This document shows positions 2,944-51,333 of a DNA stretch of 64,000 nucleotides, in pieces. Position numbers and translations under genes: made by a program. The stretch is taken from positions 62,682,001-62,746,000 of the forward strand of contig OX597817.1 in assembly GCA_951406725.2 (NCBI GenBank). The letters are read 5' to 3'. This DNA is from Octopus vulgaris. Its lineage: Eukaryota. Position 1 is the first letter of the stretch. Each line of letters opens with the position of its first letter. The notes beneath the pieces are model-generated. The model did no database searches. It had not been told where the DNA came from and worked only from the letters and a program-made list of their open reading frames with translations.

Positions 2944-3135
2944 CAAATATGGAAATGAGAAATTTATATCGTGACTTTTGAATATGGCCATTTGAATATG
3001 GCTAACCCCTAAGGGTGGATGCTACTGTATTTTGTAGCCCCAGGAAGATATCTCCTCCAGCTGGCTATAGACACACTATCTGTGCCCTATCAGTATGTGA
3101 AGGGAAGTCATCCTTCCCGTCTTCAACTTATGATA

Positions 3136-3180
3136 CACACGGACTCGAGTTTCAAGGTGTTTACCTTTCATCAGCGTGTG
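3136..3180 (-). ncRNA. Canonical minimal type-I hammerhead ribozyme
   Basis: Reverse complement: cacacg CTGATGA aaggt aaac acctt GAAA ctcgag TC cgtgtg. 6-bp stem I, 5-bp stem II, palindromic stem III, GUC cleavage triplet. Confidence 0.92.
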
Positions 3181-3247
3181 ACAATCATAGTTGTCGACGA
3201 GTAATAGTTGTGAAGGGAGCTGACTTCTCGTCGACAACTATGATTGT

Positions 3248-3292
3248 CACACGCTGATGAATGGTAAACACCTTGAAACTCGAGTCCGTGTG
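3248..3292 (+). ncRNA. Minimal type-I hammerhead ribozyme (mirror copy)
   Basis: cacacg CTGATGA atggt aaac acctt GAAA ctcgag TC cgtgtg. One stem II mismatch. Predicted cut after 3286. Confidence 0.88.
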
Positions 3293-3604
3293 TATCATAA
3301 GTTGAAGACGGGAAGGATGAATTCCCTTCACAAATACTGATAGGACACAGATAGTGTGTCTATAGCAAGCTGGAGGAGTTATCTTCCTGGGGCTACAAAC
3401 TACAGTAGCATCCACCCTTAGGGGTTAGCCATATTCAAATGGCAAATATGCGTCACGATGTGTTACCGCTACTGTTTATAACTCGCTCTGAGATTTATCA
3501 TTGAGAAATTTATAGATTAATGAAAAGACGACGTAGAGAACAGTAGTAAGGAAATAAGGAGAAGAAAAAAGAGAAGAAAAAAGAAGCATATATTTACGTT
3601 TTAG

Positions 3605-8498: not shown

Positions 8499-8584
8499 TT
8501 GGCTGATGAGTACTCAGCATCTTAAATCTGTTGTAATACTTACGACATTTAATAAAATGATGTAGTACGAAACGATCGTACCAA
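8499..8584 (+). ncRNA. Type-I hammerhead ribozyme with extended stem II
   Basis: ttgg CTGATGA gtact(ca)gcatc..gatgt agtac GAAA cgatcg TA ccaa. Core intact, palindromic stem III, GUA site, cut after 8580. Confidence 0.85.
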
Positions 8585-9010: not shown

Positions 9011-9180
9011 ATAATAATTAAATATTTGAATATTTAAAAGTAGTTTTAAATATTAGTTTTCTTCTTTGTGATCATTTATGCTTACTGTTCGTTTTTCGAC
9101 ATCAGTGGCAGACGCCACTAGAAAAACTCATATATATTTGCAAAGCAGCCTTCACTTTCATCGCGACCTGGTGGTTACCG

Positions 9181-9219
9181 CCCGTTGACGAGGGACAACA
9201 ATCCCGAAACTAGTTCGAG
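9181..9219 (+). ncRNA. Minimal hammerhead variant (C3->U)
   Basis: cccg TTGACGA ggga caacaa tccc GAAA ctag TT cgag. Downstream 9310-9380 resembles 3380-3443, so it is a related pLTR family. Confidence 0.6.
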
Positions 9220-9893
9220 CGTATCACTCAGGCTTGCGAGGAAGGGATGGCCTCCCTTTGCAAATGCTCCAAGGACACTGATATTGTGTCTAAAGCCAGC
9301 TAGAGACGACGATCTCTTGGGGCTATAAAGCTACAGTAACACCCCCTCCCCAATGTGGTTAGCCATGATAAGATGGCTTCTATACTTTACATTATCGAGC
9401 GATTACTGTTTCAATCTCATTTTGAGATTTAATTATGCTATATTAATTTCGTTTTCCAAGTAATTTATATTCCTTTCGTTCGTATTATTATCTACTCATT
9501 ACTCACTCCCTGTATATCTAAGTAAATATTGCCCTCCATTCTCCCTTATTTGTTGGTAAAAAAAAAAGCACGTATATGTACATCTTGAAATACCCTATAA
9601 GAGGTTATATATTTTAAAAAAAACAATATCCTATTTAACATTTTAGTAATTGTGTGTCTATCATAACTCATACATTTTTAACCCTGTTTTTAGTTAGAAA
9701 CAATAATATATGAGGAATCGATAATTTTTCCTCTTCTTTATAATACCTTAAACGGAAGAGATATATTCACCTGGAAAAATATAATATATATATATATATA
9801 TTACATACACAAACACACACACACACATATATATACATATATATATAGGTATACATGGACATAAATATATATACATATACAAATAGATACATG

Positions 9894-10134: not shown

Positions 10135-10672
10135 GTCTGTGAGTGTGTGTGTGTGTGAGTGTGTGTGCGTGCGTGCGTGCGTGAGTATATATGTTCTTTT
10201 ACTCAAATGGATTAGAATTTGTTTTCAAATATGTATATTTATGTTTTAATATTCGCTGCAATGATTTAAAAACTTATAGTTTAATTACATTATATGTATC
10301 TTCGATACAAGTACACTCCCATTTCATAATTAATGCTTTCTGATTATTTACAAATACCGCTGTCCAAAGCACTCTACGTAAATTAATTCAGTCATCAACA
10401 CGAAGGACTATTTTCCATTTCATTTAACCCTACGTTTGAGTAATGTATTTTCATAATTTTGTCTGAAACGTTCGTCTGTATAATTAGAAACTTAGTTCTT
10501 GATTCATACGTTCTGAGTAATGTAAATCTTTCTTTTCATAAATTTAAAGTTACTCCTGTTGAAAAATAAACTGCAAATATTTATCATATATGATGCATTG
10601 AAAATATATCCTGTGCATCACATGTGCCATACAGGATAAATAAAGGGTTAAATACTGTGATTCAAAAAATAT

Positions 10673-10897
10673 ATATTTCTTTACTACCCACAAGGGGCTA
10701 AACACAGAGGGGACAAGCAAGGACAGACAAACGGATTAAGTCGATCCCAGTGCGTAACTGGTACTTAATTTATCGACCCCGAAAGGGTTGAAAGGCAAAG
10801 TCGACCTCGACGGAATTTGAACTCAGAACGTAACGGCAGACGAAATACGGCTACGTATTTCGCCCGGCGTGCTAACGTTTCTGCCAGCTCGCCGCCT
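10673..10897 (-). mobile_element. tRNA-derived SINE family A
   Basis: Reverse complement has the ggcggcgagctggcagaaacgttagc head, a ttctgagttcaaattcc B-box-like motif and the gcctttca..ggggtcgataaattaagtaccag core. Many copies in the window. Confidence 0.85.
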
Positions 10898-10986
10898 TTC
10901 AAAATATATAGCTAGCTTTATGCTTATGGTAAAATCACTTTTAGGGTTGTGGAGTGGCAGAATCGGATGAGTGATGAACTAAACTT

Positions 10987-12180: not shown

Positions 12181-12523
12181 TGCTACAACTAATTTATGGG
12201 CCTCCTGTGTCTAATTATTGGTAATTAAGAGGAATATTTTCCTATAAATTACCTTACTGGAATTAATTGATTTCTTGAGAAACTTGTAATCATATCAACA
12301 AAATTAATTTATATTGCATATTGATCAAAGTTATATAAACAACACAGCATTTTGGAAAATCTCGTCCCATCTATAAAACATACTAACAGTAGGAAGTTGA
12401 TCTCACGTCATATAAATTAATGGCGTACCCGTTTGTATAACTGACCGACCAACGAATAAATTAGTCGTTCTGTACCCTTTGTTAACATCTGAGGTAGGCA
12501 ATTTCAGAAATTGAGTGTTTTTA

Positions 12524-12880
12524 AGGTGGACAGCTGGTAGAACCGTTAGCACGCCCGGCAAAATGCGTAGCCATATTTCGTCTGCCGTTACGTTCTGAGT
12601 TCAAATTCCGCCGAGGTCGATATAATCGACGTAATCCATTTGTCTGTCCTTGTTTGTCCTCTCTGCATTTAGCCCTTTGTGGGTAGTAAAGAAATAGGTA
12701 TTTCGTCTGCCGCTAAGTTCTGAGTTCAAATTCCGCCGTGGTCGTCTTTGCCTTTTATCCTTTCGGAGTCAATAAATTAAGTACCAGTTACGCACTGGGC
12801 TCGATGTAATCGACTTAATCCCTCTGTTTTCCCTTTTTGTCCCCTCTATGTTTAGCCCCTTGTGGGCAATAAGGAAATAA
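12524..12880 (+). mobile_element. SINE family A with internal tandem duplication
   Basis: Head followed by two copies of the gtatttcgtctgcc..gtgggtagtaaagaaata unit. Confidence 0.85.
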
Positions 12881-13520
12881 GAAATGGAGTGTTTCAGTCA
12901 CATAATAAATATGGGTGTACAGGTGATTGTGATTGTGCGTGTGGAGGGGCGCGTGTACAGTGCACGGCTAAGTGACCCTGTACCTATGCATATGTTGCCA
13001 TAGGTTAAATTATTGAATTTGCAAGGTTACAGTTTCCTTTCAGTGTATGTTTCATATCAATACATCCCAGGGACAAATCTTACATAGGCTTGAATTACAG
13101 CTCATGCAGGTCTTCCTTTCCCAAGGACAATATATATCCAGCTGCGTCTCGACTTTTATGTATATAGAATGTTCTTTGTTTTCCACAGCGGAAAACAAAG
13201 ACCTTTGTTTAGAAAGAAGCCATAATATATTACAGACATTCATTCACGAAGAACATCCATGCCAATATTGTATGCATATACATATATCTATGTGAATATA
13301 TATATACACACATACACACACGCCCATACACGCACACACATGCACACACGTACACACATACACACATATATATATATACGCACACATAGATGTATATATG
13401 AATATGTACATGTGTATATATATATATATAAGCATAACAAATGCGCAACCGGTAAAAAGAACTTTCACCTAATTAAATTACTTAAATTACTTCAATTATT
13501 TGTCAGCATTTTCTTCATTT

Positions 13521-19260: not shown

Positions 19261-19356
19261 ATAGATTAGTTAAAGCTGTTTAACGAAATATTTATTATGG
19301 TTTTCGTTTTGGGATTTGGTTTGCAAGATTCTTTATTTGAGTTCGTGTGTTGAAGC

Positions 19357-19522
19357 ATATTCTGTTGTGTCTGGGGAGAGTCATTTTCTTTTTGTGCTTT
19401 ATAATGTAACACACTCACCGGTAAAATTTCCACTTATTTCTTATTTTTAGTTTCCTACTGGTGAATGTGTTACATTATAAGACACAAAAAGAAAATGGCT
19501 CTCCCCAAACACAACAGGATAT
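19357..19522. repeat. Short inverted repeat (~66-bp arms)
   Basis: atattctgttgtgtctggggagag..caccggta versus tactggtg..ctctccccaaacacaacaggatat. Confidence 0.85.
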
Positions 19523-20605
19523 TATGGTTTTGTTAGAGGAGAAAGAGCGAACTTATGACTTTTATATAGAGCGTCCTAGATTTTTAGGAGAGCCAGAGGA
19601 AAATTTTAATTTCCTTGAGTGAAAAACACTTGCAAGAGAATGGAATCTTATAGAGGTACCCGAGTGTCATAAGTATAATTTTATAGATGTACCGAGTGTA
19701 AAACAACAAAAAAGATTTTGCACGACAGAAGCTGCACAGTTAATTTGATCGGCTTATTCAAAGTGTCCGACCACCAAAATTATACTTACAAAACTTTGGA
19801 TTAACCCTATGTTGGAGAACTGAACTCCAAATCATGTGATTAAGAAGTGAATTTCTAAACCACATGGTCATATTTGAATGCATTAACCCCAAACGTGTGA
19901 AGCACACGAAATAGATTTAGAAATTTCTAGCTACATATAAAGAATTTTGTACGATGAACGACAATTTCCCAGCACAACGAACGACATCTCATCTACTATA
20001 ATTTCTATATCAACATAACGTCCATAAGCTTTCATATAAAACACCAGTCTAAAGAGCAGCAATTCTAACCTACACTGTATTCTCACAACAATTCTAAAAC
20101 GGAATAAGGGTCATACAAGAAGAAAGTGTCAGACCAAAGTTAAATAAACTGCTGTGAAACATTAAGAAAAAAGCCAATATTACTTCAGAAAATAATGTGG
20201 TTCAGCCTCGATATAACAGTTTCCCACCAAGAATTGCAATGTGAGATATAAGAACCTGACACTAAATCTTCAGCCAAAGCTTATCTCTCTTTCTAGTTAG
20301 TGTATTTTATTTTATTTTATTCAGTCTTCGTTACAGTAGTGAGTAAATATTGGATTACTCACTGCACCTTGGTAAATTTAGCCAATCAATGTATTGGGAC
20401 TGGAGACTGGACAAAAAATTTGGTGACTCTGCATCTGTTTCATGGCATCCACAACTAAATAGAATACACGAACACATACAATTGGAGAAATCATCCAACC
20501 AGCCAACCAACATTTTTATGAACTATTATATACATATACATTCACACAAACACACACTCACATATGTATAGATATATATATATATGTGTGTGTGTGTGTA
20601 CGTAA

Positions 20606-20656
<51 letters not shown>

Positions 20657-20697
20657 TAAGAAAGTTGGTATGTGAAAGCACGTGGTTGAATATATAG

Positions 20698-21434
20698 AAA
20701 ATAGTAAAAAGTGAAAAAACTACAGAAGGCTTGTTTTAAAAGGTTAAAATATATATATTTGAGTCAATATGTCTGAAGAATGTTATAAATCTTTTTCTTC
20801 ATACAATGACATAGTATAGAAGAAATGACCGGTTTCGCGTTCAGCTTTTCAAATTTCTTAAAACGTTATGTTTACGTTGAGCGGTGATCTAGATAATAAG
20901 TGATTTCTTCCGGTATAAGGGAGATAATCCACGGGACTATCACTCAGACGTAGATGCACATTGCATCGACAACAGATTGCATTCCCAGAATACAGAATGA
21001 TACCCTTTAGTGAGCACATTGAGAAATGCGCAAAGCAACTACTACCACAATTTCTAATCTTTCCATTCTACCAATGTGCTATCGGAACACCAACACAAAT
21101 TAGACTAAACAAGGAAACATTCTTCCTTGAAAAATACAAGCCCAAACTTAACCATTCCAACATACTTATACAGAGAAACTCAATCCAAAAGAAAGGCAAA
21201 TAATTTTAAGCGATTATCTCCCTTACACCGGAAGGAATCACTTATTATCTAGATCACCGCTCAACGTAAACATAACGTTTTAAGAAATTTGAAAAGCTGA
21301 ACGCGAAACCGGTCATTTCTTCTATATTATGTCATTGTAGGAAAAAGATTTATAACATTCTTCAGACATATTGACTCAAATATATATTTTTTAACATTTT
21401 AAAACAAGCCTTCTGTAGTTTTTTCCCTTTTTAC

Positions 21435-21440
<6 letters not shown>
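20698..21440 (+). mobile_element. 5'-truncated Penelope-like element: inverted pLTR, GIY-YIG C-terminus, pLTR
   Basis: Inverted arms 20698-20929 and 21212-21440 enclose a GIY-YIG-type coding remnant. (TA)n tracts lie on both sides. Confidence 0.85.
20931..21203 (+). pseudogene. Penelope-type GIY-YIG endonuclease C-terminal fragment
   Basis: TGLSLRRRCTLHRQQI..FSEHIEKC..RLNKETFFLEKYKPKLN matches the TG.sL..R...H / E...I....P.LN pattern of PLE endonucleases. Confidence 0.8.
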
Positions 21441-21479
<39 letters not shown>

Positions 21480-23850: not shown

Positions 23851-24554
23851 TAAAATTTCCTTCCTTCGGGGTTGATAAAACAGGTACCAGTTTAACACTG
23901 GTGTCGGTGTAATCAACTTTGCCTCTTCCTTCAAAGTTGCTGACCTTGTGCCAAAATTTGAAATCAATATTAGTTATGGTAATCAAATCAAAAGAAATTC
24001 ACTCTCTCTGATCCGAAATATTCAAGTCCCTTGCAACTGCGTAATCAAATCACGGTTACTCATTGATGTTAATCAAATCATATCATGGTTACTGATTACA
24101 GAGAGAATAGTAGCTTACAGCTATTAATTAATTAAGTAGTTAATTAATGAATACGCTTTCTAAATTATTTCCATGTCACGTAAATTAGGGCTGCCCGTTT
24201 TTGTAGTACTAAAGTTTCTGTATAATGAAATAGAGGTAAAAGCTCGTATTGCCCCCCACCCCACAACGATTACCAAAAATAGTAAACGATCTCTGATGAA
24301 GCGCTGCGAAACAATGATGAACCTAGCATGAACTCCTTTATTTTTCTGGCCCCAAAAGGGAGACAGAAACGTATTGTAACAATGACATCTATTATTGTCA
24401 GCGAAACGGAAATTCTTTTGTTTAATCCGTTCGTTACATAGTACATCTCACTCTCTTTCTCTCTCACTCTCTCTCTTTCTTTCTCTCTCTCTCTCTTTTT
24501 CTCTCTCTCTCTTTTTCTCTCTCACCTCTGACACAACTAATATACACCCATATA

Positions 24555-24950
24555 AGGCGGCGAGCTGGCAGAAACGTTAGCGCGCCGGGCGAAATGCTTA
24601 GCGGTATTTCGTCTGCCGCTACGTTCTGAGTTCAAGTTCCATCGAGGTCGACTTTGCCTTTCATCCTTTCGGGGTCGATTAAATGAGTACCAGTTACGCA
24701 CTGGGATCGAAATAATCGACTTAATCTGTTTGTCTGTCCTTGTTTGCCCTCTCTGTGTTTAGCCCCTTGTGGGTAGTAAAGAAATAGGTATTTCGTTTGT
24801 CTTTATGTTCTGAGTTCAAATTCCGCCGAGGTCGACTTTGCTTTTCATCCACTCGGGGTCGATCAATTAAGCACCAATTGCATTCTGGGGTCGAACTAAT
24901 CGACCGACCCCATACCCCAAAATTTCGGGTCTTATACCTAGAGTAGAAAA
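24555..24950 (+). mobile_element. SINE family A with internal duplication
   Basis: Full head plus a duplicated core. Confidence 0.85.
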
Positions 24951-26114
24951 GAATATACACCCATATAAATTATATATATATATATATACATATATAAGTG
25001 AATTGAAGAAATGGAGTTGAACGAAGATTGAACAGAATTCCCTTTATTGCATTCTACACATGTTTCAAAAGCCACAATTTTCCAAATTCTAATTAAATAA
25101 GGATACCATATTGTGGCTTTCTCTTCAGGAAAAAAATAGGGATTCCGTTGGCAGAACAAAACTGAACAGAGGCGCAGCAAAGCAATTTGAACGAGGAGGC
25201 TCTTTAAGAGCCCATGGCTGAACTGATTATCAATGTACGTTGAAATCGGGTGGTGGGTGCGTTGAAGATATTTACAGGTCAGGCGGCGGTCAAATCCAGT
25301 AGGTGAGAGCAAGGGGTGTGGAGATGTTCTGTGTGACCAAAACTAAAATTCTGAATATTTTAAGAATACTGGGTGTAATTTTTGGGGGCGAGACAAAAAC
25401 TACCTAGAAGCATGTATGTGTGTACTGGCCTATGTGTGCGCGGCCGTATGTTGGTAAAAGGCGCTACATAATGGTCACTGCTGAAAAATTCGTCAGGCGG
25501 CAGAAAATATTTTTTGTGTCCGTGTGTTCGTCTAGGCCTGCTTGTCAAAAAATTAACGTCGTCAAAGAATCCTAAGGGTATATAAAATTCCTGCGTTTGC
25601 TTCCAAAACAAACCACCATTCGCCTAATGGGAGTAATTTCCCCTTGCAAGGGTTATTCATATATTTCTTAAAAAGCTTTTTCAAAAATTATTTCCAAGGA
25701 TTATTGGTGCTAATTATCTTAGGTATCATTTATAAGCAAGATAAGTATAACGCCGCCAATGGGGACATCGAAAAGCCGACTGTAAAAGTCCGTTTACCAA
25801 CCGGTCTCTGGCGAACAATATGTGGAAAAGCTCAGAGACACAAAGATTGCACTTCCTTCTGCCCCTATCAAATGGGAGGGCCACTGACAAAATCGACCAT
25901 TCCAGCCTGAAACCTGAGTTCGCGTTCTTCAAACCCCATATAAAATTCAATTATCCGCACCAACGCACGGTTGCAACACCAAATGGTTTTATCTCCAACC
26001 GTGCTTTCTTCTGCTGTGATTTTTGCTACCAAGGTATCGGTTAAACTTTTGATTAATCTGCAACAAGATTATTCATCTTTCTATTTTACCAAATATATAC
26101 ATATATATATATAT

Positions 26115-26979
26115 ATCTTATAATTAAGGGCTAAAGAAGGTTATTCTAAAGCCAATACACTGATTTATCCACTTATAATCCACTTGTTACAAGAAAATTG
26201 AACTGAAAGCGGGCAACTAACCTTTAGAAAATTTAAATTCCGAAATTGATTCAATATAGAGATAACGAAATTTAAATTTTCTAAAGGTTAGTTGCCCGCT
26301 TTCAGTTCAATTTTCTTGTAACAAGTGGATTATAAGTGGATAAATCAGTGTATTGGCTTTAGAATAACCTTCTTTAGCCCTTATTTATAAGATGTTTATA
26401 CTTCAACCGTAAAGGTTTTTTTAATATACTGCCACGCTTTTTGATGGAATCCTTTTCTGTAGAGAAAGGGACTTCATCCTATATTGTTAGTAGTAAACTC
26501 ACTGCTTGTTACAAGGGGACCGGTAACCATTACAATATGTAACGGCGATAGGTCAACACGTTGTTCTGAGACTGACCAAGGAATTTTTATTTTTAGATAT
26601 AAATGATGTACTTAAGTGTTGTTGTGTTTTTAGCTTCTGCTTTTTCCATGATCACATGTGAGTATTTTATTTATATTCCCTCGTAAACTCTACTGAAGAA
26701 GAATGTATCCTTTATAGGGATTAATCCCGAAATTGATTCAATATAGAGATAACGAAATTTAAATTTTCTAAAGGTTAGTTGCCCGCTTTCAGTTCAATTT
26801 TCCTGTAACAAGTGGATTATAAGTGGATAAATCAGTGTATTGGCTTTAGAATAACCTTCTTTAGCCCTTATTTATAAGATGTCTATACTTCAACCGTAAA
26901 AGTTTTTTTAATATACTGCTACGCTTTTTGATGGAATCCTTTTCTGTAGAGAAAGGGACTTCATCCTATATTGTTGGTA

Positions 26980-26980
<1 letters not shown>
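26115..26980 (+). mobile_element. Non-coding Penelope/retrozyme-like insertion: inverted arm plus 487-nt-period tandem repeat, within (TA)n
   Basis: 26115-26239 is the reverse complement of 26269-26393. 26239-26493 is directly repeated at 26726-26980. Contains an HHR. Confidence 0.85.
26688..26748 (+). ncRNA. Type-I hammerhead ribozyme
   Basis: ctcta CTGAAGA a gaatgtatcctttatagggattaatccc GAAA ttgattcaa TA tagag. 5-bp stem I, near-palindromic stem III, imperfect stem II base. Confidence 0.75.
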
Positions 26981-27071
<91 letters not shown>

Positions 27072-27094
27072 AGGTAGGTAGCTAGCTAGCTAGC

Positions 27095-27175
<81 letters not shown>

Positions 27176-28465
27176 TGTGTGTGTTGGTGCATGTGTATGT
27201 GTGGTGTATGAAGGCAGGCATGACTAAGAGATTAAGAATTTTGCTTTGAAAACTTGAGATCTGGATTCGATCCGACTATATGGTATCTTGAACAGGTTTC
27301 TTTTACTATTTCCTGGAGTCGATCCAAACCTTGCTACTCAAACTGAGTTGAGAGAAACATTGCAGCAGCCTATGAGGTGGACTGTATTCGTAATTCGAAG
27401 GTCCGTCCCTTTTGTACTGTGTTAGGCTGGTCCTGTTAGAGAATTTCTCTAAGGTTTAACGTCGCCTTAGTAAGCATTGCTTCACCATACACATTGAATG
27501 CGTTGAAATCGAGTGGCCATCATAGTGTAAATAATCTATAACGAACTTAATACAAGGCGGTAGAACGTATTATAAATTTTATTTTGAGCAGAAATTATAC
27601 CGATGCGAATAAGCGTTCCACGTTTTATTGATTTTCATATAATCAATAACATTTAGAGAAAAACAAAATTGCATTTATAAAGGCGCAGGCTTTGCTGTGT
27701 AATAAGAAGTGAGCTTCCCAGCTACATGGCTCTGTGTTCGGTCCCACTGTGTGGAAACATGGGCAAGTGTCTTCAACTGTAGCCTCGTATTCGGTAGATT
27801 TGGTAGACGGAAACAGAAAAATACCCGTTGTGTGTGTGTGTAGGGGGGTGTTCTTCTAACGGCTGACAACCGCAGTTGGCTTGCTTAAGTCTCTATAAGT
27901 TAGCGGCTCGGCAAAAAGACACCAATAGAATAAGGATCATACTTCCAAAATACGAGTAATCGGGTTGATTCGTTCGACTAAAATTCTTCAAGACATTATC
28001 TCAGCATAGCTGATGTCTACCGACTGAAACAACTACAAAATAAAAGATATATGGTAGAAATTATTAAAAGAAAACATAAACATCCACATTAAAAATTCAA
28101 AACTTTTGTAACTTTTCCAGTATATGCCCCACACGTGTTACTTTTTATCATTGGTGCTCTTCACATCACCTAATGCGTATTGCCTCTTCGCTTTGGCTCT
28201 GTTGACAACTGGGTATAAACAATACGTGTATTTACATGCCTTTTGCTGAGTTTGGGAATGGCTCATGTTTGTCTTCGACACGTTTTTAAAAAGGCGTTTC
28301 AACCGTTGCTAATCGTCGCTATTTGAAAAGCTTTACATCTGTAACAATCCAGTCTTCTTAAAAACATTTCAAATCTACGATCTAGTTTTCTTTCTAAAGC
28401 AAAATCTCTCTCATCACGCGTTAACGTTTTACTTTACCCCAGATGATTCAGAGAACAAATAGTCC

Positions 28466-28562
<97 letters not shown>

Positions 28563-29206
28563 GATAGATAGATTGTGTGTGTTGGTGTGTGTGTATGGTG
28601 TATGAAGGCAGGCATGGCTAAGATTTTAAGAATTTTGCTTTGCAAACTTGAGATCTGGTTTTGATCCGACTATATGGTATCTTGAACAGGCGTCTTTTAC
28701 TATTGCCTGAAGTTCGCTATGCCTGAAAACTAAATTATGGGATGGACAAAGGTGAGGTGCATTTGATCACCGTTCTATTGGATCTGAGCTGAGCTGTGAT
28801 ATAATAACATAAACAATTACCGGCATGTTTATACGTGTATGTTTGCGTGTGTATGCTTTTGTGTATGTGAATGTTGTTTGTGTATGTGAATGTTGTTTGT
28901 GCTTGTGTATGTGTGTGTGTGTGCACGCGCGTATGCAAGCTGCTGCTGCTATCACACTGCATACTAGAAATATCACTCGTTGTCAACATAAATTGCATGG
29001 CTGAAATCCCACGGCAATATTGAGAAAACGATTATTATAAATTATGTTTTGCAAACAGAAATATTATGATTTATCTTTTGCACATTATGCCGGTGGAACA
29101 CACATATGCACGAGAAGAGACGAACCTAGTATTACAATTTAACGCCACGTTTACCAATTATATTAGTGTTTACAAAGAACTATACTACCTCATATACATG
29201 CTTACG

Positions 29207-29634
29207 TATTTCTTTACTACCCACAAGGGGCTAAACACAGAGAGGACAAACAAGGACAGACAAACGGATTAAGTCGGTTATATCGACCCCAGTGCGTAAC
29301 TGGTACTTATTTAATCGACCCCGAAAAGGATGAAAGGCAAAGTCAACCTCGGCGGAATTTGAACTCAGAACGTAACGGCAGACGAAATACATATTTCTTT
29401 TCTACCCACAAAGAGCTAAACACAGAGAGTTCAAACAAGGACAGACAAACGGATTAAGTCGGTTATATCGATCCCAGTGCGTAACTGGTACTTAATTAAT
29501 CGACCCCGAAAAGGATGAAAGGCAAAGTCGACCTCGTCGGACCGCGGCGGAATTTGAAATCAGAACGTAGCGGCAGACGAAATACTGCTAAGCATTTCGC
29601 CCAGCGTGCTAACGATTCTGCCAGCTCGCCGCCT
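29207..29634 (-). mobile_element. SINE family A with internal tandem duplication
   Basis: Two copies of the core/tail unit, then the head ending ccagctcgccgcc. Confidence 0.85.
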
Positions 29635-30274
29635 TTTAGTACATGCTTACAATGACATAAAACACACCATTGAGTGTTAAGTAACTCTTGTACCTATGCA
29701 CTATTGTGTGTCGTAGAAAATACAAACCGCCTATATTTCGTGTAACATTTCGCACGTTTTTATTTATTTCTCTCATTCGCTAAATAAATAATCGAAAATG
29801 TTCATGACGAAAAGTTTTTATGTCGAGTAGTGTAGAGCAAGAATTAAATTCACAGTAGGCCGAGTAACCTGATGAGAATTCGATTCCAAGCGGAAGCAAT
29901 TTTATTGAATTTGAGCCGCTAATGATCTCCAGAAAAAAGTTGAAAATTACAGTTTCCTATTTTATCCTTCTCCAGTTAAATTCAATCAATAGGAAAAAAA
30001 AATATTTTAAGATCAGCGAATTTGCGAAAGCAGTTCAACACTGGTGTAGATAAATGCATTGCAGTGCTTAGTCGTTGCTCTCGATGAATCGGTTTCGAAA
30101 TCACACTGGGATCAAGTGTTTTCCTCATTTACATATAGTAATCATTGAATGTGTTCTAGAGTTTCCTTTCTCACGACCTCATTAACACTGTACAAATATA
30201 TATATATGCCTCAGTATTAAACTGTTTACCTTAGTCAATGCACAGTGATCGCTTATGAATCTTAAGCCTATAAA

Positions 30275-30318
<44 letters not shown>

Positions 30319-30554: not shown

Positions 30555-30999
30555 GCATTTATGTATGTTATGAGGATTAGTGTTGTTAAGGATATCAATT
30601 GGTGTTTTGGATTTATGTGCGTGGAGCTGGGTGCTATATTGAGTTAATTTATCAGGGTGGAGGTTAGCTGGTCGTGGATTTCTGAGTTTCTTGCTGTTAA
30701 GATGTCGGATAACTCCAGCGATGTTAGTGGTGGTGGTGGTGGTGGAGTAGAACAAGTTTGTAGATTGGGGGTTAAATATATTTCTAAGGGTGCTAGATTT
30801 AGGGAGAATTTTTTCAAGTAGGATGAAAAGAGTTTAGTTACTCGAGTCTGAGCGAAGGTGAGTAGGTCTAGATAACGTCCCAGGTTCTGGATCGTTTAAT
30901 CTGATTGTGTGCGTAGGGGGTTAACCGAGTGGGGATAGGGTTTGGGAGGTTTATGGTGGAGTTTGTTTCGGTGAGTTGTGAGGTATATAGGATTTGGTG

Positions 31000-38574: not shown

Positions 38575-39634
38575 GGCGTTAGCAATCGACTTTAGTGCCT
38601 TGGAAGAGGATCTCAAGCATAGTCGGAGTATCCTTACGCACAGTTTATAACATAAAAAAGAGAAAGGACATGAGCAACAGCATTCAGAGGAAGTCTGGCA
38701 GCAGTGGAGCCAACAAGAAACGAAATCAAGACTTCAACACCCTCAAGTCCAAAATTTCAACAGATACAACCACAACCATGAGGAAGCTGGCTTCTGAATT
38801 TGAAGCGGACCCCAAGACCATAAGAACAGCTGTGAATGATGACTACTCCAGGACACCAGGACACCGGCTGATAGAGGCAATGAAAGCCTGGAGACTGGAG
38901 AGATGCAAAAAGGTTCTCATATACTTAAAGAAGAACAGTTTCACTGAAAGTTTTCTGACGAAAAGATCTTCACAGTGGATGCTGTTCTGAACCACAGAAA
39001 TGATCAGTACATTGCGGAGTTAACAGCAGACGTCAGGAGCACCTTCAGAACAAAACTGGTCATGGATTTTGGTTTTGTGACCTCTGGCGGAAGAAAGATG
39101 CCCATCTGCTTATACAAGCCCGGAGAAAGAGTGGGTGCTGACGCCTACTACAAGACGCTGAGGTACCATGTCTTGCCGTGGCTCCAGACCGACTACCTAG
39201 AGGTCAACTATGTGTGGACCGAGGCTGGTACTTCCAGCCATATTGCCAAGAAGGTTAAGAATTTCTGCAAATCCAACTTTTCTGCTTTCTGGTCCGCGGA
39301 CTTCTGGCTTTCTTCCAGCCCGGATCTCAAGCCTCCGGACTATTCCGTGTGAGGCATTTTGGAGCATGCCACAACAAAATCTGACATTCCAACATCAACT
39401 CTCTGCAGGTTATCATCAATGAGGTGTGGGCCAGGATGTCCAGTGACTTTGTGGTGAAGAGTTGTGCAAGGTTCTGTGGAGGGTGTAATTGCAAACAATG
39501 GAAGCCACATAGATTACATTATTTATTTAGTAATTATATGCGAATGTTAACATAGTTATAAATTACTAAGCACGTTGAACAATAAGAGATTTCCAAGTGT
39601 TACAGCAATTTTGAATGTTTTCTTTCCCCACCCC

Positions 39635-40829: not shown

Positions 40830-43800
40830 TTTTTTTAAGGATTGCGGGTATTCTGGGTCACCACCGTTTTATTTTATTACACTTTATCTAAACCTCTCCT
40901 GATATGTGACATTTCGTGGATGAGGGAGTTTGATGCTGCTGCCCTCATCTGTGTTGCTTGTCATCCAGAAATTTTGACAAACAAAGATCTTAGTTTTGTT
41001 TTGAATAAACCTACATCCATGCCATGCAGGACTCAGACTTTGAAGGTTTGTGGATCTTTGAAGCTCAAGCTGTTGCAGTATCTGGTCCTGTATCCTGATG
41101 GAAATGTTGGGACATTTGGTATCATGCAGTGGCGACCCATCCCGCTCTTTGTATAAGTAACAATACCAAAGTTTGGAACAAGTTCTTCTGGGATTTTCCA
41201 AATGTATATTACAGTATATTTTAACTGCCTATATCCCAGTAGCTGTTTGGTGACCACAGTTGGGAGTAGTACTCGAGATGGATGAGAACGACAGTCCTGC
41301 AGAGGACCATCATGGTTTCCTTTTCTCGTGTTTTAAAGTTCGAAGGATGCTCCCGGCCACGCGTCTGCAACTTATTAAAGTGCACTTGGAGAAATGCATT
41401 ATTACTCATGTCGATGCCCAGGTCACAGACTAATTTCGCTTCAGGTATAGGAATCTTTCTTGGTCCAGTGTATCCTATTTACTTTTCATTGCGCTTCCTA
41501 TGTTAGTAGTGCAGGGCTTGGAATTAATTAGCATTAAGCTGCATGTCATTTTCCTCAGCCCACCTATATATTGCGTCCAACTCACGATGTGAGGATCTGT
41601 ATCCTCTGAGAGACTTTTGTATCGTCTGCATGGCTAGCAAGGTTAGCTACTTGAGCAGCTGAGGGCATGTCAGAGAGGGCCACTATGAATAGCAGTGGCC
41701 CCAGGACAATGCTCTGTGGAACACCACTCATTATTTTCTTGGAGGTGACCCCATTGACCACCACTACCTGACTTCTCTCTTTTAGAAAGTCACGTAGCCA
41801 TTCGCCAAATTTTCCAGATATGTCAAGATTTCGGAGCTTCTGACAAATCATACCATGGTCTATTTGGTCAAAAGCTTTGCAAAGTCGAGGTATATCACTT
41901 CCACATTTGAGTTTTTGAGCAGCTGATTTAGCACCCAATCGTAATGCTGCAAGAGCTATGTCAGACAGTTTCTACTTGAAATGCTTGGTGTCCGTCAACA
42001 CGTTATTCTCTTCAAGGAATGCAATAAATTTCCTTCGGACTATTCATTCTATGATTTTGCTGATGTGTGAGATCAGAGAGATAGATTTTAGCATCTACTC
42101 TGCTTCCTCCTTTATGGATAGGACATATCGTTCCCTCCTATAGTTTGTTCTGGAGCTCACCATTTGCGAGGAAGCTCTAAAAAAAGTAGCTGCAATGGTT
42201 TTGCAAGGACTCGTTTGCATGATTGAGTAAAATTGCTGGGAATCCATCAGAGCCAGCAGCTGAGTTTGCATCTATATAATCTTTTGCAAGCATTACATCC
42301 TTTTCTTCGATGTTGGTGTAACCAATTCTTATTGCCTTCCGTTCAGCTTTTGTAGCAATAAAGAATTCTACAGGTTTGCTAATTAGCATGTGCCGTAGGG
42401 ATGACGTGAAGACAATTTAGAACTGTTCATTCAGTGTTTCACTTATCCTCATTAGGTTTCCCGTGAAGGAGCCATCTTTTTGGAGGAGTGGCCCTACCTT
42501 GCAATGCACAGATGCAGTCTCCTTGGCGTACCTAAAGAAGCCATTAGGATCTGATTTTATATTTCATATGACACAGGCTTCTCTCTCTGATCTTTCTTTC
42601 TCATGGAAGTGCTTCAGTTATTTCTCAATCTCCAACAGTGCTGTTTCCAGGTAGGGTTTCCCACTGCCGTTGCGTTCTTTTTTTTAGGCGGTTTGCAATC
42701 TTTGTACACTGTCTCATAAGAACTTTCCTCTCCGTATTTTTATGTGCCTTGGCCCTTGTCTCTGGGACAAACTCTAGCATTATGGCTTGCATTACAGACA
42801 TGAAAGTTTTCAATGTCATGTCTATGTCAGGTGTAGAGAGACATTGGGACTAGTCCTGTTTGGTGATCTCTCTCTCCATTAGTTTCGGGTCTGCTTTGTA
42901 GTAGTTCAGACTGGTTAGGTTGTGGGTGATTCTCATAGGCTGCATATATGTGGGTTGATCCATACATGGTCAGCTCTATTATGTTGTGATCCGAGATTAG
43001 CATCGGTGTCACTTTCACATTATAGATGAGATCCACATTTTTGTGAAGCACAGATCAAGTACATTGTTTGCTCTGATTGGTTGGAGTATTATTTGCTCCA
43101 TACATAAATTGTTGGTGTGGTTGAGTAGGGATTAGACCTGACTTCATTGTGTCCTTCCTCAGAGGAAAAGACCTTCGGGCCATTTCATATTGGATAGGTT
43201 GAAGTCTCACATGAGAAGTACACTGATGTGCTTTTCTATTGTGGTTAAGACCTCTTCTATTCTTGCAAGGCAGTCTATGAATACGCCCATGGGATTTGGG
43301 GCATCTGGTGAGCGATATTTTTACATATAATTATGTCAAGTTGTCTTATATGTACAATTAGTATGTCACACACTGAGTTTGAGTGGAACAAAAGGATCTG
43401 GTGTGTGGGATCTTCACGGTGGTACATGGAACTCTACCATGGCCCCTGTCTTTTCTATAGCTTCACAATATCACGTACTTTGGTATGTGTATTTCTGCAT
43501 CTGCGATGTCGGATGTTAAGTGTGTTTTAGTGAGTACTATTCATAAGGCTTGATTACATGTCACTAGATCTCTAAGGAAGGTAATTTTAGTTCTGTTACT
43601 GAGTTGTAACAGTTCTCCTCTTACATTTGCTAATATATTGGTGTGACTTCTGTGCTGGCGCAAGCGATGGCCACCCTAGATCCATTGGTTGTTGCAGTCT
43701 TGCGTATTGGTGGGGATGTGAGGAAGCCAATACTGTGGAATTGATGAAGCCAAGTTAATTGTTGCACAATCTTTTGAGCCATGCATAAAAAGAGACTTTT

Positions 43801-45721: not shown

Positions 45722-45786
<65 letters not shown>

Positions 45787-46125
45787 ACAATTGAGGGTAA
45801 AATTAATTAATTAATCAATTTCACCAAGTGTTCAGTATGTAAAAGGACCATTTAAGGCGAATTCAAAATATTACATTATATAATTAGGGCTTAGTAAAAT
45901 AAATTACTTTGCCACATACTGAACTTAGTAGAAATAGCAGCCAAAAATTTTCTTAGCATTTCTACTACTTAAAGAAAATTTCTCTCAGATAATGTTTACT
46001 CCAGACAGTTCACGAAGGTTTGGGGGTAAATACAGAAAAATATCGGAGTGGTTCATCTGAAGCGACAACTTCGCTGATAGGTAAAGTTCCTTCTTTTTAG
46101 TGTTTCCAAATCCAAATTAAGAAAT

Positions 46126-46188
46126 TTTGAGCTGACGAAAGAAATGCTAATTTTATTTGGCTAATCTTGAAACGTTAACGTACTCAAA
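46126..46188 (+). ncRNA. Canonical type-I hammerhead ribozyme, tandem copy 1
   Basis: tttgag CTGACGA aaga aatgctaattttatttggctaa tctt GAAA cgttaacg TA ctcaaa. Predicted cut after 46182. Confidence 0.92.
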
Positions 46189-46688
46189 CGATCTATGTAC
46201 TTGTGATATTTTTCTGTATTTACCCCCAAACCTTCGTGAGCTGTCTGGAGTAAACATTATCTGAGAGAAATTTTCTTTAAGTAGTAGAAATGCTAAGAAA
46301 ATTTTTTGGCTGCTATTTCTACTAAGTTCAGTATGTGGCAAAGTAATTTATTTTACTAAGCCCTAATTATATAATGTAATATTTTGAATTCGCCTTAAAT
46401 GGTCCTTTTACATACTGAACACTTGGTGAAATTGATTAATTAATTAATTTTACCCTCAATTGTTGATATTATAATTCATTTCTCTCGGTCATACTGCCTC
46501 GGTTCTCGCGGTTAAAATATAATGTTTGCTGGATAGACCACGTGGGTGGAATGGGGAGTGCAGAATTTTACGCCTGCGCATTTTGAATTTGTTGACACTG
46601 TTTAGTCGGAGTGGTTCATCTGAAGCGACAACTTCGCTGATAGGTAAAGTTCCTTCTTTTTAGTGTTTCCAAATCCAAATTAAGAAAT

Positions 46689-46751
46689 TTTGAGCTGACG
46701 AAAGAAATGCTGATTTTATTTGGCTAATCTTGAAACGTTAACGTACTCAAA
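46689..46751 (+). ncRNA. Canonical type-I hammerhead ribozyme, tandem copy 2
   Basis: Same as copy 1 with one loop substitution. Predicted cut after 46745. Confidence 0.92.
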
Positions 46752-46936
46752 CGATCTATGTACTTGTGATATTTTTCTGTATTTACCCCCAAACCTTCGT
46801 GAGCTGTCTGGAGTAAACATTATCTGAGAGAAATTTTCTTTAAGTAGTAGAAATGCTAAGAAAATTTTTTGGCTGCTATTTCTACTAAGTTCAGTATGTG
46901 GCAAAGTAATTTATTTTACTAAGCCCTAATTATATA

Positions 46937-46985
<49 letters not shown>

Positions 46986-47346: not shown

Positions 47347-47714
47347 ATACAGAGTGAAATAAATGAAAATATTTATACATACCCACAGAAAAGCACACGC
47401 AAAATGAGAGTACATACAAACATTCACAAATATATAAGCATCGAATTTCGCAGTCCACCTCAACACATGTGTACTTCGTCAGAATACTACAGAAGTAAAT
47501 AAACTGACCCGAAGTGAATTAATTTATGAATTTTTAGTCAGTCTGCTTTCCCGCTTTCAACCTATGTATATAAGTGGAGTCAATATCTGCAACACACACA
47601 CACAAACACAATTCAATTAGATGTTAAATTGGCTTCATTTTTTATTAAATTAGATATTCCAGTTTCTTACTTTCCTTTGAATAACCTTGGTTTGTACATA
47701 ACTCTATTGTTTTA

Positions 47715-47781
<67 letters not shown>

Positions 47782-47784
<3 letters not shown>

Positions 47785-48455
47785 GGGTTGGACAAAATAA
47801 TGGAAACATTAAAAATTCAATCGAATTTATTTTAATATGGGTAGGACACCCTTTGACGGTAATTACAGCTTGAATTCTATGAGGTATGGACTCATACAAA
47901 GTTTTAATTATTTCCAAAGCAATATTTGTCCATTCTTCAGCTAAAACAGTCTCCAGTTCTTGTAGTGATGATGGTGGTGGATATCGACTCCTTACTTGTT
48001 TTTCTAAAATGCACCATAAATGTTCAATAATATTGAGATCTGGGGACTGTGGTGGCCAGATAAGATGTTCAACTTTACTAGAATTTTACTAGCGCCATTC
48101 AGTAACAATTTTAGCTGTGTGAATTGGTGCATTATCATCCTGAAAGATTGCGTTTCACTCCGGAAACAGTTCCGCGACCATAAGATAAATCTGATCAGAT
48201 GAAATGCTTAAATAGTCCTGACTATTAATTTTGCCATGAAGGGAAACCATTGGGCCGGCGGATTTCCAAGATATAGCCCTCACCCACCCCAGATCATCAC
48301 AGATCCTCCTCCATGTTTAACAGTCGGAAAAAGGCAGTCTGGGTCAAATGCTTCTTTTGGCTGTCTCCACACGTATACTCGACCGGTGGTCGGAAATATG
48401 GTAAAGGATGACACGTCCGAAAAAATAACATTCTTCCACTGCTCTAGAGACCAAT
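47782..48455 (-). mobile_element. Tc1 transposon 3' half
   Basis: TIR caggggttggacaaaataatggaaaca after TA. Minus strand reads WPPQSPDLNIIEHLWC and LYESIPHRIQAVITVKGCPT. Truncated by a family B SINE. Confidence 0.88.
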
Positions 48456-48929: not shown

Positions 48930-49518
48930 TTATCAATATAAAATTACACGGGTTTTCCTCAACAGCTGTTACACAAACTGTAGTCAGTAAGCGGAACTCC
49001 ATACAGCCAGTATGGTAATTACAATATGTCTGCTATCTGCGTAATTTCATAATAGTGCAGAACTAAATTAATTAATTTGCAGAAATATATAAGTATTTAT
49101 GACCAATTTATTGTTCATGCGTGTAACGAAAATAATATTTAATATTTTCCATAGCATTTAGTTAACGAGCAAGATATACATGCTTCCAATCCTACGTGGG
49201 TGATGTACGGGAATCCAAACCTACATAGAAAGATAATACACACCATTATGTGAGTAATGATATTTTAATGACAATTACATAATAGCAATTTATTGAATAC
49301 AGATATGCTGACGTTATTGTTGTAGTCCTTAGCATGGCTCTTAAAACAAACGTTGCTTGAAATTGTTTTATAGACAATTAAACCTCAGATAATATATCAT
49401 TATTTCAGAACTTTAACTCTAAAATATTCGCCAAACATTAATTGCTAGGTTAATTATGCATCAGAACCTATGTTTTATTGATAATAAAACCTTGTATGGT
49501 GAAATATATAAACTTATA

Positions 49519-49933
49519 AGGCGGCGAACTGACAGAATCGTCAGCACGCCGGACGAAATGCGTAACCGTATTTCGTCTGCCGTTACGTTCTGAGTTCAAA
49601 TTCCGCTGAGGTCGACTTTGCTTTTCATCCTTTCGGGGTCGATAAATTAAGTACCAGGTACGCACTGGGGTCGATGTAATCGACTTAATCCGTTTGTCTG
49701 TCCTTGTTTGTCCTCTCCGTGTTTAGCCCCTTGTGGGTAATAAAGAAATAAGTATTTCGTCTGCCGTTACGTTCTGAGTTCAAATTCCGCTGAGGTCGAC
49801 TTTGCCTTTCATCCTTTTGGGGTCGATAAATTAAGTACCAGTTACGCACTGGGGTCGATATAATCGACTTAATCCGTCTGTCTCTCCTTGTTTGTCTCCT
49901 CTGTGTTTAGCCCCTTGTGGGTAGTAAAGAAAT
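49519..49933 (+). mobile_element. SINE family A with internal tandem duplication
   Basis: Head plus two ~180-bp core/tail units. Confidence 0.88.
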
Positions 49934-51333
49934 AGAAATATAAAAGCTTATATATTTATGGTATTTAAATTCTTAGGGTAAATACTGTTCACCCTCTTGT
50001 CCAAAGAAATCGGTTTATAGATCTGAGTCAATGGAAGCTCCGGGGAATTCTTCGGAATCATCCTTGATTTCTGAAACAGGCACAAATGCCTCAAACTGAG
50101 GGGAGGGAACAACTGATTACATCGACTTATTTTAACGATCTCCGAAGGAATGAAAAATGAAGTTAACATCAACGGTAAATGAAAGCAGATCCTAAAGAGC
50201 TAGAATTAAAGAATTCGGAATATTCTCTACAATTCACTTGTGAAACAGTAAAGTTATTTTATGCTCACCATCAACAACATGCAAGCGCCATGCGATGTCA
50301 ATCGCGTTCTTCTCATTCCACCTGCCTGTTCAGATGAAAGTTAACCTTACTCTAACTTTTGATTTGATAAGGGACTTTTTGAGCCGAAATATCATTATAT
50401 AAGGAAGTGTAATCTTTTGAGTTTGGTTGCGTTTTCACTTCTTTATTGCTCGGAAAAAGTTAGATAAACAGACTGGCGAAGAATTAAAAAGATAGATATA
50501 GATATAGATATATGCAAACGCACATACACACACACACATACTCATACACACACACACACACACACACACACTCATACACACACATGTATACATATATGTA
50601 TATATACATATATACATGTGTATATACGTATGTGATTTCTCATTATTGCGAGGTGAATGGACTGGAGCAACGTGAAATGAAGTGTTTTGCTTGCTCAAGA
50701 AGACAACACATAACACAGTCCAGAAATCGAAGTCACAATCTTACATTCAAGAGAACAACAAACAAAAGACAGGTCCACGCACCTCCAATCACACATACGT
50801 ACATGCATACATATATACATATGTATTTATGTATATATATATATATATATGTGTGTGTATGTATGTATGTATGTATGTATATATATGCATATATTCACAC
50901 ACACATAGAGTACCTTCGATCTACATTCCAAGAGGAAGATTAATTTCATTCCGATATTTGGAAAATCTCAAATGCTGAATAACACTGCTTAAAAACTTGG
51001 AACTTTCTCTGTGTGTGTGTGTGTGTGTGTGTGTCTGTGTGAATGTGTGTGTGCGCGTGTGTGTGTGTGCATGTGTGTGTGCATGTGTGTGTGCATGTGT
51101 GTGTATGTTTCTCTGAGTATGATCGTGTATGTGTGCGTTTTCGCGTTTGTGTGTGTATGTGTGTGTCTGTATATATTTATTCATATATGCATAAATATAT
51201 ATATATATATGTATTTACACATACATATACATATAGGTGTTTGTACGTATGTATGTATGTATGTATCTATTACGTATGTATGTATGTATATTAGACCCCT
51301 TTTTGTATCTCCTTCGCTTCCCAAATTCTCTAA

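Follow-up and report, generated by a model that had tools for sequence, protein, structure and literature searches.

Positions 26115–26980 of the window, by which we mean the whole stretch of 64,000 nucleotides of Octopus vulgaris DNA analysed here (assembly GCA_951406725.2, contig OX597817.1, forward-strand positions 62,682,001 to 62,746,000), carry a compact insert, E3, that consists of an inverted arm and a tandem repeat between (TA)n tracts. Four inserts of the window combine a hammerhead ribozyme (HHR) with an inverted arm, namely E1, E2, E3 and E4, the last lying at 46 kb. Their features are as follows, with unit positions given relative to the predicted hammerhead cut.

2987–3443, no strand: E1, an inverted pair whose arms each hold a whole hammerhead, with a 25-nt spacer and the arm edge at −60
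20656–21448, + strand: E2, a 5′-truncated coding Penelope-like element (PLE) with a GIY-YIG C-terminus at 20928–21179, an inverted arm, a tail of ~35 nt on one end, (TA)n flanks and the arm edge at −103
26093–26116, no strand: left (TA)n target tract of E3, interrupted; its final bases could equally belong to the arm end
26115–26239, − strand: inverted arm of E3, a copy of unit positions +13 to +137; its outer end is site A
26240–26268, + strand: 29-nt spacer of E3, in which the sense copy starts at −17; it holds the hammerhead 3′ half (GAAA to the stem I 3′ strand), with the cut-equivalent after 26256
26257–26743, + strand: complete 487-nt unit of E3, cut to cut, 33% GC, non-coding and strongly self-paired
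26314–26328/26502–26516, + strand: 15-bp long-range helix closing the four-helix domain, mean pair probability 0.97; its 3′ strand begins just past site B
26344–26495, + strand: four-helix domain, common to the 46-kb element (P1 26346–26354/26423–26431, P2 26355–26379, P3 26405–26417, P4 26443–26478), with site A at ~26393 and site B at ~26493
26596–26677, + strand: long hairpin immediately 5′ of the ribozyme, 28 pairs, mean probability 0.97
26688–26748, + strand: type I hammerhead with palindromic stem III (dimer type), predicted cut after 26743
26744–26980, + strand: partial second copy of the unit (+1 to +237) up to site B, a pseudo-LTR plus putative tail
26981–27015, no strand: right (TA)17 target tract of E3, then (TG)n and (GATA)n
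45780–46938, + strand: E4, sister element with a 563-nt unit and two full hammerheads; arm outer end at site B, sense end at site A

The arm of E3 is the reverse complement of 26269–26393 over 125 nt with 1 mismatch, and reaches 135 nt at 97% when the AT extension is included. Its direct copies, 26240–26495 and 26727–26982, repeat with a period of 487 nt and differ by 5 substitutions in 256 nt; the sense part thus comprises 1.5 units and contains a full type I hammerhead and half of another. At the sole position within the arm span that distinguishes the two copies, the arm agrees with copy 1. The 125-bp arm, the 487-nt period and the (TA)n tracts on both sides (the left one interrupted) had been described in the initial annotation and are all present. 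E3 is inserted amid unstable microsatellites; its flanks have no non-AT 6-mer in common, and a target-site duplication is unreadable in (TA)n. Inverted repeats at both termini, which would mark a MITE or TIR element, are not what E3 carries, as its right end extends 100 nt beyond the inverted part. Just to the right of E3 lies a 250-nt repeat anchored in (GATA)n (27068–27319 and 28467–28713, 90% identity).

The window is animal DNA rich in microsatellites, in which fragments of LINE and Tc1-like elements occur. A LINE reverse transcriptase (RT) fragment (RVT_1 E 3e-8), plus Tc1-like DDE_3 and HTH fragments, lie at 41585–41971 (−), 47648–48085 (−) and 38583–38987 (+), and an abundant SINE-like repeat occurs at 29203–29638, 49503–49939, 24539–24904, 12519–12885 and 10667–10899, two copies having internal tandem units of 184–185 nt. 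The commonest SINE of the window is, we presume, octopus-like. An isolated long hairpin of ~175 nt at 19353–19529, perhaps a small TIR element, has no hammerhead, and its Rfam miRNA match, among those listed, is far under threshold. A GTDB scan with a 24-nt pattern returned 0 matches, as expected of an animal repeat, and a sigma-70 promoter scan, irrelevant for a eukaryote, stayed at chance (4 vs 4.2).

The unit of E3 was said to be non-coding, which is borne out: its longest stop-free frame measures 54 aa, and no open reading frame with a telomerase-like RT and a GIY-YIG endonuclease, expected of an autonomous PLE, is present. A PLE protein profile, built from the 61 of 152 fetched PLE-like proteins that are 690–830 aa long, finds no match in E3 (best i-E 1) or E4 (best i-E across both 0.8), and in the window scores E2 alone, the control, at i-E 4e-18. 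The possibility, also raised earlier, that the unit is part of the 3′ region of a coding PLE is therefore not borne out by the profile. We also considered an endonuclease remnant at 26536–26598, where tblastn gives a weak match to an endonuclease C-terminus (21 aa at 38%; E 0.16 against a database of six sequences, and 2.6 against the window), and rejected it: the PLE profile gives no score there and a homolog search with the 44-aa frame found none. The frame at 30594–30833 (−), which we take to resemble the post-RT region of a PLE, has no Pfam match and is unscored by the profile.

As RNA, the ribozyme strand of the E3 unit is strongly self-paired. Folded as a circle it has a minimum free energy of −123.4 kcal/mol (z −4.7, with 0 of 100 shuffles as low), independently of the arm. 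The antisense unit gives z −2.2, and the 563-nt unit of E4 behaves in the same manner (−5.7 sense vs −2.7 antisense); the lowest z among ordinary window slices is −3.4 (46 run of 59 candidates, 12 shuffles each). A reading of E3 as a miRNA precursor was rejected: among the Rfam matches listed (best 150 of 226), MIR4208 attains 75 of the 140 bits of its gathering threshold, a generic hairpin match.

The hammerhead of E3 possesses the core CUGAAGA/GAAA/UA, a stem I with 5 of 5 pairs and a near-palindromic 9-nt stem III. The lower 4 bp of stem II contain two A-C mismatches, one at 10.1–11.1 and the second two pairs up; if a base is bulged, a G-C pair forms, but the following pairs fail. In E4 the lower stem II is intact (4 of 4 pairs). 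The hammerhead fold of E3 comes to −4.2 kcal/mol, and an alternative fold is more stable at −9.1 kcal/mol. A scan with a strict descriptor failed to pick up this ribozyme owing to the mismatch in stem II, and Rfam yields no hammerhead match up to E 10 in 26400–26980. A relaxed descriptor, composed after the candidates were known, gives 9 matches in the 64-kb window against a mean of 0.16 (maximum 2) in 100 shuffles. The full hammerhead previously announced at 26688–26748 thus has its core, stem I and cut site there, but "full" overstates a ribozyme that has two stem II mismatches and is passed over by the strict descriptor and Rfam; the hammerhead 3′ half placed in the hairpin spacer does lie in the 29 nt at 26240–26268. 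The core-to-cut distance is 50 nt in the ribozymes of E3 and E4 alike, and their direct global alignment scores −9, so their likeness is architectural.

A-C mismatches are favoured sites of A-to-I editing, and cephalopods edit heavily. Both stem II defects of E3 (26700–26728) are of the A-C type, and we speculate that A-to-I editing would restore pairing. Metazoan PLE hammerheads are described as cleaving poorly, and as dimers (PMC4209133). Two further hammerhead-like sites were noted in the window. At 8499–8584, ~135 nt before a (TA)n tract, lies a clean type I hammerhead whose stem II region measures 59 nt and whose stem III is palindromic; no arm or repeat was found there. Among the Rfam matches listed, Hammerhead_HH9 scores weakly at 9167–9237 (31.2 of 52 bits), a site with a damaged core that is related to the 3-kb family; E1 is 73% similar over 139 nt to the region 9240–9377.

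The protein fragment of E2 is 74% identical over 76 aa (E 5e-30) to P0003, an RT plus GIY-YIG protein; by Pfam, P0003 has an RT match and a sub-cutoff GIY-YIG match, and its close relative P0002 reaches the GIY-YIG cutoff. The peptide was identified via these homologs, Pfam reporting 0 families for the E2 peptide alone. Both arms of E2 carry a hammerhead variant with a U3-A8 core. As a coding PLE with the layout and flanks of E3, E2 serves as a positive control, indicating that PLE machinery makes such a layout. The two share no meaningful DNA similarity (best E 0.45), and the E3-only covariance model described below (R3) does not match E2.

The initial annotation had called E3 and the 46-kb element unrelated, without evident sequence similarity. 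For blastn this holds: searches against the window and among six candidate inserts returned no further copy of E3 and no link between E3 and E4. Whole-unit local alignment is borderline: with four scoring schemes, 12, 70, 11 and 22 of 500 shuffles attain its score, and 7 of 444 window slices exceed it. Structure-aware comparison gives a different answer. Folded separately, both units adopt a common layout, in which P1 encloses P2 and P3, P4 follows, and a long helix closes off all four, with a long hairpin and then the ribozyme downstream; the E4 analogues of the closing helix and of the pre-ribozyme hairpin are 46261–46271/46478–46488 and 46582–46679. The four-helix domain spans ~150 nt with ~58% identity between the elements. 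The independent folds have 16 exact pairs in common (mean 0.6, maximum 13 in 1000 column shuffles), and P1 and P4 show one- or two-sided pair changes. An RNAalifold consensus of the two-sequence alignment misses P2 because of misregistration.

The covariance model R3, built from the two copies of E3 alone, finds as its best non-self matches the two copies of E4, both full-length (34.4 bits, E 1.2e-5; 30.2 bits, E 1.1e-4), and its next match reaches 19.9 bits (E 0.019); these E-values are rough, and the limits of the domain segment were picked after the likeness had been noticed. Modelled without structure, the same E3 alignment matches E4 only at E 0.13, which explains why no similarity was seen at first. 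Matches of another model, R1, were left out of the evidence because R1 contained E4, making them circular. The 19.9-bit match, 30141–30285, has its end at a motif resembling site B, next to an (ATT)n tract, with CTGATGA at 29869 and no whole hammerhead; it is possibly a decayed third relative. The lack of evident similarity therefore stands for blastn and falls for the covariance model, the 16 exact pairs and the end-anchored alignment given next, and "unrelated" has to be abandoned for two elements that have the four-helix domain and both insertion ends in common.

In E3 the arm ends at site A (+137) and the sense copy at site B (+237); in E4 the arm ends at site B (+287) and the sense copy at site A (+193). 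The distance from A to B is ~100 nt in E3 and ~94 nt in E4, with the order swapped between the elements. When E3 and E4 are aligned from their junctions, the score is 30, and the best of 2000 shuffles reaches 22; of 17,932 slices, the two E4 copies rank highest. For the 30 nt before B alone, 2 of 2000 shuffles do as well, and before A alone 386 of 2000 (not significant); over 50 nt the pattern flips (B 407, A 26 of 2000). Crossed controls for the A and B alignments are not significant. One copy per family was seen, so sites A and B rest on four ends. One end of E3 extends 100 nt past the other, and the arrangement is swapped in E4; such use of A and B in either order would be the behaviour of a PLE tail, here ~100 nt rather than the published 30–40 bp. 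Since the elements have both the domain and the ends in common, they are not two independent lineages that converged on one breakpoint.

Relative to the predicted cut, the inner arm edges lie at −60 (E1), −103 (E2), +13 (E3) and +23 (E4). The arms of E1 and E2 contain a whole ribozyme because their inner edges lie well before the cut, and neither the E3 nor the E4 arm reaches into the ribozyme. The earlier statement that inversion begins 13–23 nt past the cut is accurate for E3 and E4 and fails as a general rule for E1 and E2. Under a rough uniform null, and for a range chosen post hoc, landing within +1 to +25 has P ~0.16 in E3 and 0.06 in E4. The sense copies start at −17 (E3) and −140 (E4), so the main cDNA would have crossed two cut sites on a template that was uncut or religated. 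In vitro, HHR mutants left PLE insertion unchanged, and RNA-seq gave no reads beginning or ending at the HHR cut (PMC11167929).

PLE insertions are characterized by a partial tandem, an adjacent inverted 5′-truncated copy, an optional tail of 30–40 bp on either end and a bias for (TA)n and other microsatellites (PMC8557442; PMC3846280; PMC8969392). In vitro, a purified PLE protein both cuts and extends each of the two strands; it begins copying at two positions inside the RNA, which delimit the tail (PMC11167929). E3 displays the corresponding marks: a partial-tandem pseudo-LTR, a head-to-head inverted 5′-truncated copy, a type I hammerhead in the repeat and a (TA)n target. A parent autonomous PLE with an E3-like pseudo-LTR was not found in the window, whose sole coding PLE is dissimilar. 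We regard it as likely that E3 is a single insertion of a non-autonomous PLE, with a retrozyme-like 487-nt unit moved in trans by the RT and GIY-YIG endonuclease of an autonomous PLE; that E3 is non-autonomous and PLE-mobilised at all we hold to be highly probable. The integration mechanism proposed earlier as shared by E3 and E4 is thereby supported, and is the known PLE mechanism, whose layout matches.

In this model, a PLE protein acting in trans would bind the four-helix domain of the E3 RNA and nick AT-rich (TA)n DNA. Reverse transcription may then be primed internally at B on one nick, with 1.5 units copied across two hammerhead junctions from an uncut multimer or a religated circle, and a second priming at A on the other nick would produce the short inverted arm. 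The two cDNA 3′ ends would finally join head-to-head with 0–2 nt of microhomology. We lean towards such twin priming, in which case A and B would be the pair of start sites from which the PLE tail, here ~100 nt, arises. The hammerhead likely serves to release unit-length RNA as a dimer and to allow circularisation, and would not be needed to place the inversion. We further entertain, as a doubtful extension, that E3 and E4 form an undescribed retrozyme-like subfamily whose conserved four-helix domain is a cis signal for recruiting the PLE protein, which then primes at both A and B, one cDNA coming from circular or uncut RNA and the other from ribozyme-cut RNA.

The main rival for the origin of the E3 arm is fold-back self-priming, which we consider rather unlikely: a cDNA running from B to −17 would fold, prime itself at +13 and copy to A, so that the edge is set by the truncation point and the loop rather than by the ribozyme. 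The short spacers of E3 (29 nt) and E1 (25 nt) suit this reading, as does the proposal of self-priming from PLE junction palindromes (PMC3846280), but the remaining two inserts have long spacers (160 and 282 nt) and the junction homology is only ~2 nt. The agreement of the E3 arm with copy 1 at the one informative site also suits self-priming; however, that site has a 1-in-3 chance pattern, and the E4 arm offers none. Fold-back gives no reason for the outer ends of the arms to match the two 3′-end sites of the sense copies. A role of the cut, as the initial annotation envisaged in suggesting that the HHR-defined RNA 5′ end influences where the inversion falls, can be narrowed to the statement that the arm of E3 or E4 is a cDNA of hammerhead-cut RNA that ran off at +1, with 12–22 nt trimmed on joining, the cut thereby setting the inversion. 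This is compatible with twin priming and agrees with the edges at +13 and +23 (the rough P of 0.16 and 0.06 given above), with arms that stay outside the ribozyme and with the intact 4-bp stem II of E4. However, the two fitting cases are related families, the other two of the four inserts have edges at −60 and −103, no edge is exactly at +1, the sense copies of E3 and E4 read across two cut sites, stem II of E3 is mismatched, and both the in vitro mutants and the RNA-seq ends cited above speak against an effect of the cut. Placement of the inversion by the HHR-defined 5′ end is thus weakly supported at best and, even in its narrowed form, seems improbable to us; a subfamily-specific run-off at the cut in E3 and E4, with E1 and E2 as other families, is possible.

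Two readings would dispense with a self-propagating family or with transposition altogether. E3 could be what remains of a coding PLE after truncation or internal deletion, and the weak endonuclease likeness at 26536–26598 does lie at a plausible distance from the ribozyme; but the PLE profile scores nothing, the 44-aa frame has no homologs, the unit folds as one self-paired RNA and E4 has the same non-coding architecture, which leaves this reading with little probability. The placement of E3 between unstable microsatellites could likewise be cited for local DNA repair, replication slippage or an assembly artefact having produced the duplication and inversion. We regard this as very improbable, given the 5 differences between the copies in 256 positions, a period that includes a hammerhead, the presence of arms in four separate hammerhead inserts, and ends that fall on the corresponding sites of E4.

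If PLE mobilisation of a retrozyme-like unit is accepted as the preferred reading, its significance lies in several questions that the sources consulted call open or answer only with proposals, namely the route of inverted and tandem PLE insertion, the role of the PLE hammerhead and the enzyme that mobilises animal retrozymes (PMC8557442, PMC11167929, PMC7229834). Animal retrozymes are described as self-paired units of low GC content that encode no protein and carry type I hammerheads, and it has been proposed that they derive from PLEs or are moved by them (PMC7229834; bioRxiv 10.64898/2026.07.22.740005). A retrozyme-like unit with PLE insertion marks would offer direct structural support for PLE mobilisation, and a conserved fold of 150 nt on which both insertion ends have been located makes a compact, testable candidate for a protein-binding and priming signal. 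Should the subfamily reading be true, genomic copies of E3 and E4 would directly record retrozyme insertion by PLEs and show at what stage of the PLE cycle the hammerhead is active. In the open literature searched, by title and abstract opening, we found neither a cephalopod hammerhead element nor a conserved start-site domain in non-autonomous PLEs. A study of Octopus vulgaris repeats lists 31 recently active Penelope-like families, with "ribozyme" absent from its main text in the version consulted (PMC13282606); the E3 family may thus be present in a repeat library already. The layout and ribozyme of E3 are already known, the fresh feature is the shared domain carrying both ends, and the gain is incremental.

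Compared with known systems, E3 resembles the PAc in vitro system (Poseidon, Anolis) in having two putative internal start sites downstream of the hammerhead that bound a putative tail, and in its AT-rich target. PAc, however, starts in an AC-rich stem-loop inside the open reading frame and makes a tail of 30–40 bp, whereas the ends of E3 and E4 lie ~100 nt apart in an AU-rich multi-helix domain (PMC11167929). With non-autonomous Chlamys PLEs such as MRC1, E3 shares a non-coding nature, pseudo-LTRs and head-to-tail insertion; those elements, in contrast, are without canonical hammerheads, belong to an algal host and have a demonstrated similarity to their parents, which is not shown for E3 (PMC8557442). 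Like metazoan non-LTR retrozymes, E3 is non-coding, has 33% GC (criterion <45%), is highly self-paired and is delimited by a type I hammerhead (PMC7229834; bioRxiv 10.64898/2026.07.22.740005). Unlike them it measures 487 nt, against ~170–400 nt reported for invertebrates (the discussion of that paper allows 150 to >1000 nt), and has an inverted arm and a tail; the word "inverted" occurs 0 times in PMC7229834. It also has 1.5 units with one whole and one half ribozyme (two in E4), with predicted cleavage and circular RNA, and by the preprint's rule of two whole ribozymes for activity the E3 copy would not count as active (bioRxiv 10.64898/2026.07.22.740005). From endonuclease PLEs (Penelope/Poseidon, Neptune, Nematis) E3 departs by having no RT/endonuclease reading frame, a unit of only 487 nt and a putative tail of ~100 vs 30–40 nt; it shares with them the pseudo-LTR tandem, the head-to-head inverted truncated copy, a putative one-ended tail, the type I hammerhead with palindromic stem III and the AT-rich target (PMC8557442, PMC3846280, PMC4209133).
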